A stretch of DNA of 64,000 nucleotides, taken from assembly GCA_013166775.1 (NCBI GenBank), contig JABLTJ010000001.1, forward strand, positions 64,001 through 128,000. Direction: 5' to 3'. This DNA comes from Promethearchaeati archaeon (lineage in GTDB: Archaea > Asgardarchaeota > Heimdallarchaeia > Heimdallarchaeales > Heimdallarchaeaceae). Every line of letters starts with the position of its first letter. The stretch's first letter is position 1. Under the pieces are notes generated by a model. That model was not told the origin of the DNA. It ran no database searches and saw only the letters and a program-made list of their open reading frames with translations. The position numbers and the translations under genes were made by a program. Shown in pieces: positions 9,086 through 64,000 of the stretch.

Positions 9086-9206
9086 TATGATAAAGCTGTT
9101 GTGATTATATATTTCAATTTTCTTTTCTGAACTATCAATGTAGCTTATGATAAATTTTAAATATTCACTTTTCTTTACTCAAAATGAGTGAATTATTTCA
9201 AAGAGA

Positions 9207-10166
9207 GTGAATGAAATGGCAGAACTTAATGTGGTTGTTGTAGGTGTAGGGAGTTGGGGAAAGAATCACGCAAGAGTATTCAACGAACTACAAGAATCAA
9301 ATTTAATAGGTGTTTATGATCTTGACCAGAACAAAGCTAAGATTCTTGCAAAGCAATTTAATGTTAAATCATTTCCCAATTTAGAAGATATTTTCAATTC
9401 GGAACAAGTAGACGCTGTAACAGTTGCATCTCCAACATCAACCCATAGTGAAATATCTCTAAAAGCTATTGAACACGGAAAACACGTTTTAATTGAGAAA
9501 CCAATGACAAGTTCGATAGAAGAAGCTGAGAAAATCATAGAAAAAGAAAAAGATTCAGATGTTGTTGTTTCTGTAGGTTTCATTGAAAGATTCAATCCAA
9601 TTGTTAAAAGATCAAAAACATTGATTGAAGAAGCTGAACTAGGGGATTTAGTACTTATTAGTGCTAGACGTTTAGGTCCATATTGGCCTGATAGATTGAA
9701 AGATGTTGATGTCATCAGGGATGTGAGTATACATGATATTGATGTTTTTGGATATTTATTAGGAAAAGATCCTATTTCTGTTTATGCTAGAGGAGGAAAA
9801 TTAAGGCACCCATATTTCGATTATGCGGAAATATTGCTAGATTATGGAGAAGGAATCACTGGATTTATTGAATCAAATTATCTTACTCCACATAAACTTC
9901 GAAAACTTATGCTAACATGTGAGCAAGGAATTGTTGAAGCTGATTACATCACTCAAGATTATGTAATTGAAGATCAAGAATGGGCAAAGCAACAAAAGAT
10001 TCAATGGCAAGAACCATTAAAGGCAGAGATGTTGAGTTTTATTAATGCTTGTTTAGCGAAAAAAACACCTCACATTACATCTACTGATGGCTTGAAAGCT
10101 TTAAAGATAGCCGTAGCATCAATAAGGAGTATTCAATCACATAAGGTTATCGAACTTGATTTATGA
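9207..10166 (+). CDS. Gfo/Idh/MocA family NAD-dependent oxidoreductase (sugar 3-dehydrogenase-like)
   Basis: GVGSWG..HAR, HVLIEKP, GFIERFNP, D.SIHDID. Confidence 0.9.
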   Translation: MNEMAELNVVVVGVGSWGKNHARVFNELQESNLIGVYDLDQNKAKILAKQFNVKSFPNLEDIFNSEQVDAVTVASPTSTHSEISLKAIEHGKHVLIEKPMTSSIEEAEKIIEKEKDSDVVVSVGFIERFNPIVKRSKTLIEEAELGDLVLISARRLGPYWPDRLKDVDVIRDVSIHDIDVFGYLLGKDPISVYARGGKLRHPYFDYAEILLDYGEGITGFIESNYLTPHKLRKLMLTCEQGIVEADYITQDYVIEDQEWAKQQKIQWQEPLKAEMLSFINACLAKKTPHITSTDGLKALKIAVASIRSIQSHKVIELDL

Positions 10167-10205
10167 TATTTTTTAAAAAGAAAATAAAAAGAAAAGTGTG
10201 AGTGA

Positions 10206-11654
10206 CTATTTTAAGCCAAGCAATCCAGCAAGTGCTGGTACTGTCTCACTAATCTGTTCACTCGCAAATATCTCATAATATTGTCTTAGGATACCCGTTG
10301 TAAGTAGAATTCCTGTACCCGTACCTAACGCTCCTAGAAAATCTGCTACTGCAGCTAGGATACCAATAAAGAATCCTCCTATCCATGCAGCGATAGGAAT
10401 ATATCTTTCGAGATATCTTTCAACTATCTTTGGATTACGTCTAAATCCCGGAATTTGCATATTTGCATCCAATAATTGCTTTGCAACATTCTTTGAACTC
10501 ATACCTGCCGTATCTATCCAGATCCGTGAGAAAACACCACAGAGTATTATCATGAAGAACATATATGCAATAGCATTCCCAGGATGGACTCCAACCTGTT
10601 CTGGTCCATACGGAGCCGTAGTTAAGGCAGCCAATCCTGAGACTGGCTGCAGTTGAGTCGTATCCGGTATTTCTTCCCATCTCCCCATGAAATTCACTAA
10701 GAAGAATTTGATACCCGTACTCTCATTTGACCATTTGTTGTGCATCAGATTTGATATGAAGTAAACATTAGCAAAGAGAGCACTAACAAGTATTACTGGA
10801 ATGTTGGAAGTATATAGGAACTTAATTGGATAGCGAGCTGGCATTTTATATTGACTATGTTGAACAGGAATTTCAACCTTTATAGAATCAACATAAATTA
10901 CCATTGCGAATACTACAATTGTAGCTAACAAACCAACAAGATCTGGGGTTCTTCCAGGTCTACTGAATGGAGTGGCTACATCACCTCTACCTATTCCTTG
11001 AAAGAAGGCTAAAATAGCTCCTCTATACCACATCACTCCTCCAGATGATTCTTGAGTCAAACTAAACATTCCATCAAAGATATTGAAACAAACACTTGCA
11101 GCAATAAAGAGACTTATTCCACTTCCTAGTCCATATCCTTTCTGAATAACTTCATCCATAAGCAAGATAACCAATCCTGCTACAATTAATTGTGTTAAGA
11201 TAAGCATTTGTGCTTCAAAAGTTAGATCTTCACCATAAGCACCACCAAGAATATATGCTAAAGCTTCGAACAGAGTCATCAATATAGCAAGTACTTTTTG
11301 TGTTCCAGTGTACAATGCTCTTTCCTCAGAACTAGTGAAATCTACTTTGATTATCTGCGAACCCACTAGTAGTTGCATAATCAAACCTGCTGTAACAATC
11401 GGACCAATACCGAGTTCAGCTAAACTTCCTCTTTGGGAAGCTAATATTGCTCTCATTGCAAAGAAAGGATCAGTACCTTGACCTGCTTCTCTTGGTACGC
11501 CGACAATGGGTATATTCAGCATTGCTAAATAGAGAGCCAGTATTCCGAAAGTCCAAGCTAGCTTTCTTTTGAAAGAAGGCTTTCTCGCTGGTTTTTTTAT
11601 TTCAAACGTAAAACGTTGAAATGGTTTGAAAAGCATCAAAAACTTCGAAGCCAT
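10206..11654 (-). CDS. secY: Preprotein translocase SecY/Sec61alpha
   Basis: LAELGIGPIVTAGLIMQLL, GLGSGISLFIA, YPIKFLYTSNIPVIL, IPGFR, GTGTGILL. Confidence 0.97.
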   Translation of the reverse strand: MASKFLMLFKPFQRFTFEIKKPARKPSFKRKLAWTFGILALYLAMLNIPIVGVPREAGQGTDPFFAMRAILASQRGSLAELGIGPIVTAGLIMQLLVGSQIIKVDFTSSEERALYTGTQKVLAILMTLFEALAYILGGAYGEDLTFEAQMLILTQLIVAGLVILLMDEVIQKGYGLGSGISLFIAASVCFNIFDGMFSLTQESSGGVMWYRGAILAFFQGIGRGDVATPFSRPGRTPDLVGLLATIVVFAMVIYVDSIKVEIPVQHSQYKMPARYPIKFLYTSNIPVILVSALFANVYFISNLMHNKWSNESTGIKFFLVNFMGRWEEIPDTTQLQPVSGLAALTTAPYGPEQVGVHPGNAIAYMFFMIILCGVFSRIWIDTAGMSSKNVAKQLLDANMQIPGFRRNPKIVERYLERYIPIAAWIGGFFIGILAAVADFLGALGTGTGILLTTGILRQYYEIFASEQISETVPALAGLLGLK

Positions 11655-35671: not shown

Positions 35672-36223
35672 TTATCTACCAGAAGATCGTCTTCTGTAAT
35701 TTACCATTGCTGATGCCACTAGTGCTGTAACAAACTCCCCTACTCCTTCACCTGTTAAAGCTGAAGTTTCTCTATATCTACATCCTAATTTTCGACTTAT
35801 ACGCTCTGCATCTTCTCTGTTTACCTCACGACCAACATCTGTTTTGTTTCCAACCAAAGTAATGTCCACTTTGAGATCTTGTTCTCGCAGCTCTCTTATC
35901 CAATTAGCGCATTCTTTAAACGATTCTTTGCTTGAAACATCGAAAATAATTGCAGCAGCATTAGTACCTGGGTAAAGAAGTTTTCTTACAACACCGAATC
36001 TGTTCTGGCCTGCCATATCATAAAATAATGCTACAGCTTTCCCCTTTTTTGTTTTAAAAGAATATGAGTGAAATTCAGCACCACAAGTTGGTTTATATTT
36101 TTGTGAGAAAGAATTCTCTGTTAATCTTTTACAAATTGACGTCTTGCCAGATTTACCTGGCCCACAAATAGCCAACTTATAGATATCATAATCTCTGAAT
36201 TTTACTTGTACCCTAGAGCCCAT
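35672..36223 (-). CDS. Rab/Ras-like small GTPase
   Basis: G1 GPGKSGKT, G2 PT, G3 DMAGQ, G4 NKTD, G5 SA. Confidence 0.92.
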   Translation of the reverse strand: MGSRVQVKFRDYDIYKLAICGPGKSGKTSICKRLTENSFSQKYKPTCGAEFHSYSFKTKKGKAVALFYDMAGQNRFGVVRKLLYPGTNAAAIIFDVSSKESFKECANWIRELREQDLKVDITLVGNKTDVGREVNREDAERISRKLGCRYRETSALTGEGVGEFVTALVASAMVNYRRRSSGR

Positions 36224-60512: not shown

Positions 60513-61034
60513 TTGGTGATTTGTTTGTATGGTGCTGACCAGATAAATACAATTCTACATGAAATTATTACAAGTGATGCTAATATCAATCATGTTATAT
60601 TAGCAGATAAAACAGGATTAACACTAGCTTATTCTTCTCGATTTGCTTTCGATGAATTCGAGACAGAAGCATTAGGAGCTATCGCTAGTGCAGTATATTT
60701 AGCTAGTGAACAGCAAGGTCAAAACGTTGGGCTAGCAGAACTAGATATAATCATATCTGAGTTTCAGGATGGGTTAATATTAGTTGCAAGCTGTGGTAGT
60801 ACAGTATTATGTCTTATTACTGATACTGGAGTTGCACTAGGAATGGTAAGAAGAACCATGAAAATTGCCGCAGAAAAAATAAGGAATATATTGGATGTTG
60901 AAGCTAAACCTGTACCTCCTCCAGAAGTTCAACCAATACCTGCACAACAACCTGTTGTAGTTGAAGAAAAGAAAGTACAGGACGAGTTTATCTCCGATCT
61001 AGAGCTTGCATTACGCGAACTAGAACAATTTTAA
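60513..61034 (+). CDS. Roadblock/LC7 (MglB/LAMTOR-like) protein with Pro-rich linker and C-terminal helix
   Basis: ILAD.TGL.LA, E.LGAIASA, G...L, E..DG, LG.VR. Confidence 0.85.
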   Translation: MVICLYGADQINTILHEIITSDANINHVILADKTGLTLAYSSRFAFDEFETEALGAIASAVYLASEQQGQNVGLAELDIIISEFQDGLILVASCGSTVLCLITDTGVALGMVRRTMKIAAEKIRNILDVEAKPVPPPEVQPIPAQQPVVVEEKKVQDEFISDLELALRELEQF

Positions 61035-61059
61035 AGAATCATTTACTATTGAGGAATGT

Positions 61060-61896
61060 TTGATGGATTCAAATGCTCAAAAAGGAGGAGTTGAAAGAGT
61101 AGGGAAAAAGGAACCTATCGTTGATTTAAGGGGAGAACTAATTTTAACAGGCATAAGATCTCTTGATCTTAAACTCGGTATGGAGCTATCGAATCGAAAA
61201 GGAATACCAAAAGGCTCCCTGATTTTAGTAAGTTATCCTTCTGATACAGTGATACCAACTCTTTTCGTGCAAAGAATTTTATTAAATTGGGCCCAAAAAT
61301 CTGATGATAATGTCATTTTTTATGTACATAGTGGGAGACCTTACAGTCATGTTTTACGATCTTTTCAAGCATATGAATGGGACGTTAAACCTTTTGAAGG
61401 TAAAAACTGGTATTTTGAAAATATGTTTGACTTATCAAGTTCTGCAATGGTTTCAGCACTCAAATTAGGAAAGATTGAAGTTCGACGCAAAACATATGTA
61501 AAAAAAGTAATTGAAAGAATGCTTCATGTAAAAGAGAACCAAAACAAGAAATGTTTCAGTGTTTTTGATGATCTCTTATGGATGAAAGAAGATCGATTAG
61601 ACGAAGATTCTAATACACTTATAACTTTTCTAAAAGACGCAATAATGTCTTTTAATCAAATAGAGGGTGTGCACTTCTTCTTATTACCTCAGGGGGTACT
61701 TGAACCAGTAGCGGAAAGAATAATCATGAATGCAGCACAAGGAATTTTCTACTTTTCGAGAAGTACAGTAGGAAGCAGAATAAGAGATAATTTTGCAATA
61801 ACAAAACTGATGGGGGTAGCATACATTAGTGAAAACTTGGAGATAACTCCTTCAGAAGTAGAAGGGTTCAAAATAGAATCAACAGCAAAAATATAG
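61060..61896 (+). CDS. Degenerate KaiC/RAD55-like RecA-fold protein
   Basis: TGI..LD..L....GIPKGSLILV followed by YPSDTVIPT in place of Walker A; ends EGFKIE. Confidence 0.7.
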   Translation: MMDSNAQKGGVERVGKKEPIVDLRGELILTGIRSLDLKLGMELSNRKGIPKGSLILVSYPSDTVIPTLFVQRILLNWAQKSDDNVIFYVHSGRPYSHVLRSFQAYEWDVKPFEGKNWYFENMFDLSSSAMVSALKLGKIEVRRKTYVKKVIERMLHVKENQNKKCFSVFDDLLWMKEDRLDEDSNTLITFLKDAIMSFNQIEGVHFFLLPQGVLEPVAERIIMNAAQGIFYFSRSTVGSRIRDNFAITKLMGVAYISENLEITPSEVEGFKIESTAKI

Positions 61897-62718
61897 TTGA
61901 TAACAATGGAAGAAAGAGAGGAGAAAGAAACAGAGGAACCAGAAGAATTTCAAGAAATTGCAGATGAGATATCAAAACTATCAGAAGAAGTAAAAGAAAT
62001 AAAAGACAATTTTAAATCTAGTCAAAAAGAAAGCAAGGGAATTTTTCAATCATCGAATAGGAAGAAAACATCAACACTAGAGTTATCACCAGCGCTTGAG
62101 TATGTTAACGAGTTATTGGAAAACTCATCTGAACAAATAATTTCGGAAATGAAGTCAGAATTTTTTAGATTATTTAATTTCCTATCGAGTATGATGTCGG
62201 TTTCGTCACAAAGAGATAGAACACTAGCAGAAGAAGTGAGAGAGTTTATGGAAACTCCAAGTGTGAAAACTTCGGAGGAAACAAGAGAAACAGGAGAAAC
62301 AGGAGAATGGGGGAGAGAAAAGGAGATGCTAAAACTCCTATTAGATGAGAGAGAATCACTAATTTACGAACTATCAGATCAATTAATAGCAATAGAAGCA
62401 GAAAACAAGAATCTGAAAGAGAAAATGGAAGAAATAAAAGTAGAAAGAAAATTATGGGAAAACCAAAAAGAAGTGTTCGAGAGATTAGTAACAACAGATC
62501 CAAGATTCAATATAATTACGTTGCTAAGAAGGATGGGAGTAATAGCACCAATACAACTGTCGTTTGTGCTAGGAGTATCATTATCACAAACAAGGAAGTA
62601 TATAATGGAACTAGAAAAAATGAGAATAGTGCAGGTAAATGAAGATGAAACAGTGGTGTTACATCAAGCATTTAATGAAGAAACAATGAATGTGAAAATA
62701 GAAAAAAAGGAAGAATAA
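61897..62718 (+). CDS. Coiled-coil protein with C-terminal winged helix
   Basis: Heptads; DPRF.I...L...G.....QLS..LG.S......Y..ELE....V. Confidence 0.75.
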   Translation: MITMEEREEKETEEPEEFQEIADEISKLSEEVKEIKDNFKSSQKESKGIFQSSNRKKTSTLELSPALEYVNELLENSSEQIISEMKSEFFRLFNFLSSMMSVSSQRDRTLAEEVREFMETPSVKTSEETRETGETGEWGREKEMLKLLLDERESLIYELSDQLIAIEAENKNLKEKMEEIKVERKLWENQKEVFERLVTTDPRFNIITLLRRMGVIAPIQLSFVLGVSLSQTRKYIMELEKMRIVQVNEDETVVLHQAFNEETMNVKIEKKEE

Positions 62719-62733
62719 AAAGAAAAGAAAAGT

Positions 62734-63303
62734 CTATTGTTGAGCATAAAGCTTCTCATAGAAAAGAACAATATTCTTAAGAAGAGTTTTGAAAGCTTCA
62801 TCAACATTTTCGCCAGTTTTAGCAGAAGTCTCAATATAAGGAACGGTGAAACCAGACCAACCAGAAAGAGAACGAGCATATTCTTCAGCTTGATCACGCA
62901 TAATAGGATCTTTAGCTGTAGAACGTAAATCAGATTTGTTACCAATGAGAACAATAGGAACAACACGATTACTGTTGTTCTTAAGAAGTTCAGCAATCCA
63001 AGAAGGAATGTTTTCAAAACTGGAACGACGAGAAATGTCGAAAACAAGAAGACAGCCAGAAGTGCCGCGATAATAAACCTCACGAACAGCAGAAAATCTT
63101 TGTTGACCAGCAAGATCCCAAATTTGAGCAACGAAATCTTGGTCATCGATACGTAAACGTTTGACAGCGAAGTCAGCCCCTATAGTCATACTGTAGCCGT
63201 CCTTAAATCCCTCTCCCAGGTATGTTTTCCTTAGGCTTGTCTTCCCTACTGCTCCGTCTCCCAGCAGTGTTATTTTGAATATTTTTCTTTGTCCCGCAGC
63301 CAT
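62734..63303 (-). CDS. Rab-like small GTPase
   Basis: GDGAVGKTS, TIGADF, WDLAGQ.RF, YYRG, GNKSD, ETSAK; no C-terminal Cys. Confidence 0.95.
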   Translation of the reverse strand: MAAGQRKIFKITLLGDGAVGKTSLRKTYLGEGFKDGYSMTIGADFAVKRLRIDDQDFVAQIWDLAGQQRFSAVREVYYRGTSGCLLVFDISRRSSFENIPSWIAELLKNNSNRVVPIVLIGNKSDLRSTAKDPIMRDQAEEYARSLSGWSGFTVPYIETSAKTGENVDEAFKTLLKNIVLFYEKLYAQQ

Positions 63304-63419
63304 AGCCTTTCCCCTATCACTGTCCTTTTTTCTATACTCTTCTTTCTTCTTTTTACTTTAAATATATTGTGTTAATCCTATCCCTCCAATTCTTTCTAAT
63401 TTTCTTTATTTTTTTTCAC

Positions 63420-63998
63420 TTATTCAGCTCCGAATGATCTCCAGTTTTTCACCAGCCACTCATATATTTTCATATACTTCTCATCTGCTACTGCTTTAAC
63501 CAAGGTTTGCAACAGTTCTTTTTCTATTTTTTCCAGATACATCATCAGCAGATTGTTATTATTAGGTAGCATCCAGGCTAGCGTCGTTTCTAAAGTTAAT
63601 TTGTCTATCTTACGGTATGAACATGCACCCATTCTTAATTGCTTTCCTCCGTATTTCACTATTCCTTCTTTGAACACGAAATTCTCCGCTGCTTCCTTTC
63701 CTATATTTCTAAATTTAAGATTATGGCCTAAACTTTCTTTTACCCATTTAAAGAATTCATCATAGTTTCTCTTGTATTCATTCAGCAAAATTAAGTATAG
63801 TAATAATCTTTCTCTTATCTCGATATCTGGCACCCCTGAAAGAACATTTAATTTTATTGATGTCTCTTTTGCTAATACTTTTCCGACAAATCCTCTGTCA
63901 TATCCTCTCCCTATCAATTGTTCTTTCCATGCTTTTACTTGTTTTTTTCCGTATTCTTTAGATGAAAACGCATTTAAGAAGAATTTATTCCTATCTGC
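63420..63998 (-). CDS. Hypothetical protein, 5' part outside the window
   Basis: Frame stays open to the window edge beyond the listed start at 63917. Confidence 0.7.
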   Translation of the reverse strand, partial: ADRNKFFLNAFSSKEYGKKQVKAWKEQLIGRGYDRGFVGKVLAKETSIKLNVLSGVPDIEIRERLLLYLILLNEYKRNYDEFFKWVKESLGHNLKFRNIGKEAAENFVFKEGIVKYGGKQLRMGACSYRKIDKLTLETTLAWMLPNNNNLLMMYLEKIEKELLQTLVKAVADEKYMKIYEWLVKNWRSFGAE

Positions 63999-64000
63999 TC

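Follow-up and report, generated by a model that had tools for sequence, protein, structure and literature searches.

A sharp purine/pyrimidine strand flip inside a Rab-like gene of a heimdallarchaeal genome, with inserted DNA beside it

Genes and features at the Rab locus

The region considered here is a stretch of 64,000 nucleotides from a Promethearchaeati archaeon (contig C1, positions 64001-128000; hereafter the window). Near its right end, the purine excess passes abruptly from one DNA strand to the other inside a gene for a Rab-like small GTPase. The genome, coded G000, has 3.85 Mb in 115 contigs with 33% G+C, and contig C1 is 288 kb long. Other genomes used for comparison carry codes such as G001, with G006 and G035 as the sister species. 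An operon of Roadblock, KaiC-like and coiled-coil genes (60513-62718) is convergent on the Rab gene; the KaiC-like gene matches the Pfam KaiC family with 24.9 bits, under the cut-off of 26.6. The features are as follows, in window positions unless a contig is named.

61060..61896, + strand: KaiC-like gene; the skewed block takes in its last 63 codons only
61707..63196: left arm, + strand purine-rich; 185 four-fold sites, 0.94 purine
61897..62718, + strand: coiled-coil gene of the operon; coding purine fraction 0.91
62664..63146, - strand: hydrophobic open reading frame (ORF) of 160 aa in another frame of the Rab gene; read as a by-product, not a gene
62734..63303, - strand: Rab-like small GTPase (Ras family); protein 97-99% identical to 12 aligned genus orthologues
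63175..63208: focus, where a purine run turns into a pyrimidine run; Rab codons 42/43, between TIG and ADF of the motif TIGADF
63208..64000, continuing ~794 bp beyond the window end: right arm, + strand pyrimidine-rich; 119 four-fold sites, 0.19 purine
63383..64000 (C1:127383 to ~132656 in full): start of a 5.3-kb insertion that none of the compared relatives has
63420..64418 (to C1:128418), - strand: orphan gene p332, of no known family

The flip in the Rab gene

The fraction of purine (R) versus pyrimidine (Y) at four-fold degenerate sites was scored for each gene and on the + strand. The genome-wide baseline of the coding strand was 0.49 with a standard deviation of 0.07 (3242 ORFs). In the Rab gene, the four-fold sites of codons 1-42 comprised 17 R and 3 Y, and those of codons 43-189 comprised 1 R and 71 Y, which reproduced the codon switch described in an earlier note on this DNA. 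Across the switch, AGA, AGY and TTR give way to CGT, TCT and CTT. On the + strand, the four-fold purine fraction was ~0.5 up to ~61700, 0.84-1.00 at 61707-63196, and 0.16-0.32 from 63208. The left arm consists of the last 63 KaiC-like codons, the entire coiled-coil gene, a 15-bp spacer and Rab codons 43-189. The right arm consists of Rab codons 1-42, the spacer upstream of Rab and p332; it is weaker than the left one, and from 63383 onward it sits in DNA missing from all compared relatives. The spacers carry the same skew as the adjoining coding sequence. At the gene level, the coiled-coil gene (0.91) ranked second highest and the Rab gene (0.20) third lowest among the 3242 ORFs. The earlier note had also called the gene beyond Rab purine-loaded on its coding strand, and p332 indeed scored 0.78; the other Rab gene of the window, cited there as a mixed-codon control (35672..36223), scored 0.54. 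The left-hand asymmetry had been described as a drift from ~61650. A skewed block is present there, but its outer edge is a sharp step at ~61705 rather than a gradual change.

The imperfect palindrome proposed as the centre of the flip (63180-63196) did not hold up: its 7-bp arms match at 6/7 positions, it is missing at the same flip in a paralogue, and it is not conserved. A central palindrome or a long arm-to-arm hairpin was accordingly rejected, as only low-complexity A-rich/T-rich inverted matches were found, none of them centred on the flip. Within 61000-64000, no match to an Rfam RNA family was obtained.

We considered whether the silent sites could have been shaped by codon selection at the level of translation, or by an overprinted gene in the other frame of Rab. 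Highly expressed genes of this genome ranged from 0.38 to 0.53, and those for EF-1alpha, the thermosome subunits and RNA polymerase A' leaned slightly to pyrimidine endings (0.38-0.46); the 160-aa ORF coincides with part of the pyrimidine block. However, the skew tracks the DNA strand across convergent genes and spacers, it reaches 0.01, far past any highly expressed gene, and it is missing in orthologues with 97% protein identity. No 5'-to-3' codon trend along genes was seen when all genes were pooled, and the skew runs ~1 kb further than the 160-aa ORF. Since stop codons need purines and the strand is pyrimidine-rich, the ORF is free of stops and is read as a by-product of that strand, not as a gene. 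Both forms of this explanation are largely refuted and hardly tenable.

The flip is not an assembly artefact

The earlier note had named a chimeric assembly junction at 63178 as the outcome that would undo its observation. Separate contigs from three sequencing runs of one study, from which this assembly may itself derive, read through 63178 with 0-1 differences, which rules out such a junction. Their breaks lie at 63450-63490, within a gene end that is repeated. Since the contigs span 63178 and break elsewhere, the flip is not an assembly junction. Furthermore, the sisters G006 and G035 show a weaker, intermediate version of the flip.

Recurrence of flips across the genome

A genome-wide count of comparable flips, also suggested by the earlier note, was made by scanning 403,041 positions. 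Six abrupt flips were found, five of them R-to-Y flips of this strength and one Y-to-R. The R-to-Y flips lie in the genes listed below; the first two are at the same codon position.

C1: the Rab gene of the window
C53: a Rab paralogue, at the same TIGADF position
C72: a small GTPase, at DTGGQE
C87: fhs (formate-tetrahydrofolate ligase), at codon ~295
C103: an ABC ATPase, at codon 65

The switches span 3-33 bp. In all five R-to-Y flips, purines are depleted on whichever strand runs 5'->3' outward from the point. A three-state hidden Markov model applied to the four-fold sites called 55 skewed patches, 24 kb in total or 0.6% of bases, with arms of 0.1-1.6 kb. A patch retains its + strand polarity through genes facing either way, and gene boundaries never coincide with a flip; together with the spacers, this agrees with the earlier claim that the asymmetry belongs to the strand regardless of gene orientation. 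Patches had a four-fold G+C of 0.21-0.24 versus 0.17 outside. Of 43 patch loci, 19 lie within 2.5 kb of a contig end, compared with 10.9% expected (p=3e-8).

The sole Y-to-R flip (G000:C35:21184-22268) is inside an M42 peptidase gene, 2.4 kb from orc1/cdc6, with a 620-bp intergenic gap between. A bidirectional replication origin would have a geometry and a base-sharp switch like those of the Rab flip, and a local origin or an abortive initiation bubble (e.g. of an integrated element) centred on the flip would expose the lagging-strand templates; the closeness of the C35 flip to orc1/cdc6 speaks for this as well. However, no skew exists at the scale of a replichore: along the 288-kb contig, each 10-kb bin has a four-fold purine fraction of 0.44-0.53. 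Matches to Cdc6_C were found on C35, C52, C107 and C25 and none on C1, in agreement with the earlier remark that no cdc6 gene is visible nearby. The centre lies inside conserved coding sequence (Rab codons 42/43) with no AT-rich spacer and no ORB-type repeats. Moreover, the skew ends sharply after 0.1-1.6 kb and the same codon was struck in two paralogues. A local origin is very unlikely, and a chromosomal origin or terminus, one of the options in the earlier note, is ruled out by the lack of 10-kb-scale skew, the location of cdc6 elsewhere and the centre within a coding sequence.

Divergent transcription or R-loops starting from the flip would leave the non-template strands open to damage, or the transcripts might be selected to be all-pyrimidine or all-purine. 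The geometry fits the non-template strands of divergent transcripts, the reach of 1-1.5 kb resembles that of transcription-coupled hypermutation domains, and the three GTPase loci have a TTTAAR motif at a distance of 22-31 bp from the flip. Nevertheless, TATA-like motifs were not enriched upstream of patch starts (5/55, versus 6.9% at random positions), a switch of 3-33 bp is sharper than two promoters on one TATA box would allow, and the normal Rab transcript crosses the flip. We regard this explanation as quite improbable.

Three further observations were made on the patches. Codons ~25-135 of the RNA polymerase A' gene (G000:C52:55162-55492) form a pyrimidine-coded patch with 56 sites, 0.95 purine on the + strand, and no partner arm. 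Two paralogous secreted proteins on short contigs (G000:C8:985-2163 and C57:3962-5182) are both pyrimidine-coded over ~850 bp, and the skew must therefore have been either inherited through the duplication or re-created. A 17-member family (C1:130018-130596 and 16 other loci) encodes proteins of ~200 aa with a signal peptide, a C-terminal membrane anchor and a basic tail; three of the six strongest flips have a member of it within 3 kb, a count whose statistics are post hoc. A link between this secreted (p192-like) family and the flips was dropped, as it was not significant without the seed genes.

Evolution of the Rab locus among relatives

An alignment with orthologues, again an idea of the earlier note, showed the switch in a weaker form in the two sisters and mixed codons in the other relatives. 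The purine fraction of the coiled-coil gene was 0.91 in G000, 0.58 in G006, 0.57 in G035 and 0.45-0.61 in nine others. For the whole Rab gene, the values were 0.20, 0.36 and 0.33 for G000, G006 and G035, respectively. The C-terminal part of Rab scored 0.01 in G000, 0.19 in G006 and 0.27-0.50 in nine others, and the N-terminal part scored 0.85 in G000, 0.90 in G006, similarly in G035, and 0.30-0.68 in the others.

When the left arm of G000 was compared with that of G006, 87 pyrimidine-to-purine transversions were counted (T>A 42, C>A 21, T>G 18, C>G 6) and 9 in the reverse direction. All four classes were raised in roughly background proportions. Transitions were unchanged, 57/kb in the left arm versus 58/kb in the flank, and the flanks were balanced in direction. 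Codon positions 1 and 2 were biased as well (15:2), with replacements toward purine codons in the + strand genes (N>K, D>E, Q>K) and E>D in the body of Rab. In the coiled-coil gene, ~30 of 38 pyrimidine four-fold sites had changed, by a hand estimate ~20 times the flank rate. The new pyrimidines on the depleted strand were ~72% T and 28% C, and the composition of the patches agrees. A diversity-generating retroelement or deaminase hypermutation was rejected, since all four Y-to-R transversions were raised and transitions were not.

In the three-way comparison with G035, G000 differed from both sisters by 48 Y>R and 1 R>Y, where the state common to the sisters was taken as the starting one. Changes specific to one sister, which could be polarised properly, ran the other way, with R>Y to Y>R ratios of 14:3 in G006 and 19:4 in G035, and the flanks were balanced. 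These directions indicate that the skew was already present in the common ancestor, has grown outward from the flip in G000, and is decaying in both sisters. The sisters lack the 5.3-kb insertion and most of the neighbouring DUF6512 gene, which more distant relatives retain; this is consistent with a loss in one deletion. A 'fossil' skew in the DUF6512 gene past the insertion was dropped, as other species are at the same level.

A bias in fixation rather than in mutation could give such a record. If the focus were a hotspot of recombination whose gene conversion is biased in a strand-asymmetric way, a break recurring there would be resected, its 3' tails (left, + strand; right, - strand) would form heteroduplex with other alleles or chromosome copies, and R.R and Y.Y mismatches would be resolved so that the invading strand keeps its purines. 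Unequal handling of R.R and Y.Y mismatches alone would predict what is seen, a restriction to transversions with four classes that scale about equally and no change in transitions. The geometry matches canonical 5'->3' resection, patches have a raised four-fold G+C (0.21-0.24 versus 0.17) and show an association with variable islands and contig ends, and arms of 0.1-1.6 kb resemble conversion tracts. However, the ~20-fold acceleration (a hand estimate) demands a very strong bias, we know of no such mismatch rule in archaeal repair, direct evidence of recombination or of a nuclease is absent, and the sharp outer edge at 61705 is unlike the typical gradient of a conversion tract. Biased conversion is an unlikely explanation, with a small but real chance of being correct.

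Insertions and partial gene copies at the flips

The 5.3-kb insertion begins 205 bp from the Rab focus and is unique to G000 among the compared genomes. In eleven aligned relatives (G001, G005-G008, G010, G013-G016 and G035), it is missing and the upstream side of Rab is joined directly to the downstream genes. It contains p332, fragments of a second p332 copy, and a gene for a secreted/transmembrane protein with extreme pyrimidine codons. At five flips, DNA lacking from the compared relatives was found 0.2-0.9 kb away. On C72, 1.77 kb missing in G006 and G001 adjoins the GTPase stop; on C87, homology to G006 stops just past the fhs stop; and on C103, the upstream DNA matches nothing in G006 or G001.

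For two of the target genes, truncated copies are present in relatives at 2.4-9 kb from the intact gene, on its downstream side. Those of fhs begin at codons 275-281 (G012, G013 and G016), and the fhs flip is at codon 295 in G000 and ~282 in G012. The fhs fragment of G012 contains two stop codons; the intact gene is 4.9 kb upstream of it, and the cargo in between is unskewed. In G013, G018 and G034, the C72-type GTPase has truncated copies whose starts, at codons 71-75, coincide exactly with the flip. Inserted DNA that brings its own gene end would be expected to leave such scars, and the fhs and GTPase flips accordingly mark recombination junctions. In G016, fhs is split over two contigs (C40 end, C155 start) at codons 259-275, near the flip, and a second 3' copy lies on a 1.6-kb contig; assemblies thus break at these junctions.

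The same fragments raise the question of whether skewed DNA was simply pasted in. Both arms, or the arm on the island side, could derive from a strand-biased mobile replicon, the flip then being a crossover junction. Gene fragments carried by islands are pyrimidine-coded across the genus, displaced pseudogenes included (four-fold purine 0.14-0.23 for fhs; 11 R/31 Y and 11 R/26 Y for the GTPase). The 3' part of fhs is 71-80% identical between G000 and G006 versus ~90% in the flanks, patch edges are sharp, and all p332 copies are skewed. A mosaic accounts well for the island-side arm. On the other hand, the left arm aligns collinearly with both G006 and G035, it has diverged in transitions as much as the flank has, and one-directional change is confined to its transversions, which fits a change in place. 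The cargo genes of islands are unskewed (0.47-0.53, one at 0.69), p332 has no relative in viral contigs, and the opposite, extreme skew of the host side at five loci is left unexplained. As an account of the whole flip, a mosaic origin is rather improbable.

p332 and other island genes

p332 is an orphan protein of 332 aa, with one full copy and two or three truncated ones, all purine-loaded on the coding strand. The copies are located as follows.

window 63420..64418: full copy
C1:129076-129384: fragment
C1:130651-130893: fragment
C53:18425-18778: fragment, upstream of the paralogous Rab gene

The stacked remnants suggest serial insertion. No Pfam or PHROG family and no relative in viral contigs was found for p332, and in a search of 5.8 billion proteins it recovered only itself among proteins of near length. 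The layout would be compatible with that of a free-standing homing endonuclease with co-conversion of flanks, encoded beside a cleavage site in a conserved neighbouring gene; p332, however, belongs to no known family, and the sisters, which lack it, still have the flip.

In other species, ORFs of 518-2979 aa contain domains distantly related to p332 (24-29% identity). One is in an island beside a C72-type GTPase (G013) and another is 1.8 kb past the fhs stop (G016); a relative of 520 aa gave no usable match in an atlas search. In three islands, a double-zinc-ribbon protein is encoded directly beside the junction gene.

L025 (G000:C72), 898-1716: double-zinc-ribbon gene
L094 (G013), 9123-10382: double-zinc-ribbon gene
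L074 (G016), 1093-2358: double-zinc-ribbon gene

The G000 and G013 proteins are 51% identical, and that of the fhs island of G016 is 23% identical (E=3e-11). Double-zinc-ribbon and p332-like genes together may mark one island family.

Interpretation

The Rab flip is real, local, recurrent, lineage-specific and transversion-only, and it is associated with insertions and partial gene copies. For the focus, the best reading is the inner edge of a junction, of recombination or insertion, at which mobile islands settle next to conserved genes and partly replace them. We propose that the flip is the fixed point of a two-sided, strand-specific substitution process, in other words a mutational footprint of the strand-displacement type centred on a junction, and we give this reading a probability of roughly 0.35. 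Among the options of the earlier note, a localised strand-specific mutational footprint fits the evidence; a polarity signal for a translocase and a segregation site found no support.

In the proposed process, the strand running 5'->3' away from the point on each side would lose purines through transversions. Island-associated DNA transactions at the junction would repeatedly leave these outward-running strands single-stranded, either by nicking with strand displacement or in a persistent D-loop or R-loop-like bubble, and displacement of the strands from a nick or bubble at that place would agree with the geometry. Purines lost from the single-stranded DNA, the presumed lesion, would leave abasic sites. 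The insertion of a purine opposite abasic sites is established as the 'A rule'; copied in this way, the sites would yield only purine-to-pyrimidine changes on the exposed strand, and new pyrimidines of 72% T and 28% C would be compatible with it. Purifying selection on the proteins would confine most changes to silent sites. For the Rab gene, we infer that the locus works like the fhs and GTPase loci.

Several observations weigh against this proposal. At the Rab locus, we found neither a truncated Rab copy nor a displaced Rab 5' fragment, and no att-like direct repeats, with no repeat longer than 9 bp linking the two island ends. No truncated copies of the ABC ATPase were seen, nor an att-like repeat at its locus. 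Searches with Pfam and PHROGs detected no nuclease, integrase, recombinase, Rep protein or polymerase in any island, and the AlphaFold model of p332 (pLDDT 43) was unusable. G006 keeps both arms at the C72 GTPase though it is without that island, and G013 carries the island, yet its host side is not purine-rich; an island is thus not enough by its presence, and not in every case required. Some of the right arm may be a property of the inserted DNA itself, all three p332 copies being purine-loaded on the coding strand. Furthermore, a resected double-strand break exposes the strands opposite to those depleted, and the simplest model of damage at a break has the wrong sign. A fixation bias would produce the same substitution pattern as a mutational bias, and their separation needs polymorphism data.

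A more specific version is possible but doubtful. In it, an as yet undescribed family of Asgard mobile islands, with double-zinc-ribbon and p332-like proteins as its recurrent genes, would insert at internal codons of conserved genes by a site-specific, two-sided strand-displacing or nicking reaction. The by-product would be a kilobase-scale, transversion-only flip, growing for as long as the island stays and decaying once it is lost. If this is true, a new recombination mechanism has left the flips in the genome as a scar that can be read.

Silent sites with 99% pyrimidine on one strand and a flip over a few bases exceed by far the known range of codon usage and skew, and a local DNA process can evidently override the genome-wide mutational equilibrium at ~20 times the neutral transversion rate. 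If the link between flips and island junctions is true, flips would serve as a sequence-only finder of integration and recombination sites, would let island gain and loss be followed over time, and would make the strand polarity of the reaction inferable in uncultured Asgard archaea, a group with few characterised mobile elements and recombination enzymes. There is also a risk for annotation, because skewed blocks yield long spurious ORFs and the atypical codons of native genes can be mistaken for foreign DNA.

Comparison with known systems

In the literature on purine/pyrimidine strand asymmetry or origins in Asgard archaea, we found nothing describing such flips; a paper on aloposons proved unrelated to the skew. 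The closest known setting is the integration of islands into conserved gene ends, which leaves a displaced partial copy, as at att sites of the tRNA/tmRNA type and at serial-insertion hotspots like tycheposon arrays. The present loci are similar in that lineage-specific islands adjoin the target, truncated fhs and GTPase copies of relatives begin at the flip, and p332 remnants are stacked. They differ in that no integrase or att repeats were found and that the targets are protein-coding genes, entered at internal codons. We know of no description of a kilobase-scale purine/pyrimidine skew flanking att sites.

The strand asymmetries of replication, such as bacterial GC skew and the gradients of vertebrate mitochondria, share with the flip a base-sharp change at silent sites and unequal single-strand exposure as the explanation. 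However, their axis is keto/amino and arises from transitions, whereas that of the flip is purine/pyrimidine and arises from transversions; the flip is also far more extreme, reaches only 0.1-1.6 kb and has no component of replichore scale. Strand-coordinated mutation clusters around breaks, and transcription-coupled somatic hypermutation, likewise change polarity at a focal lesion and reach 1-2 kb. Those are deaminase-driven transitions in somatic cells, whereas the flip is germ-line, accumulated, transversion-only and filtered by selection, and its sign is opposite to that of damage on resected 3' tails. Finally, purine loading of mRNA-synonymous strands (Szybalski's rule; Forsdyke) is also an asymmetry of purines versus pyrimidines visible at third codon positions. 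Purine loading follows transcription gene by gene; in contrast, two thirds of the Rab gene are pyrimidine-loaded on its own coding strand, and the skewed block ignores gene orientation.

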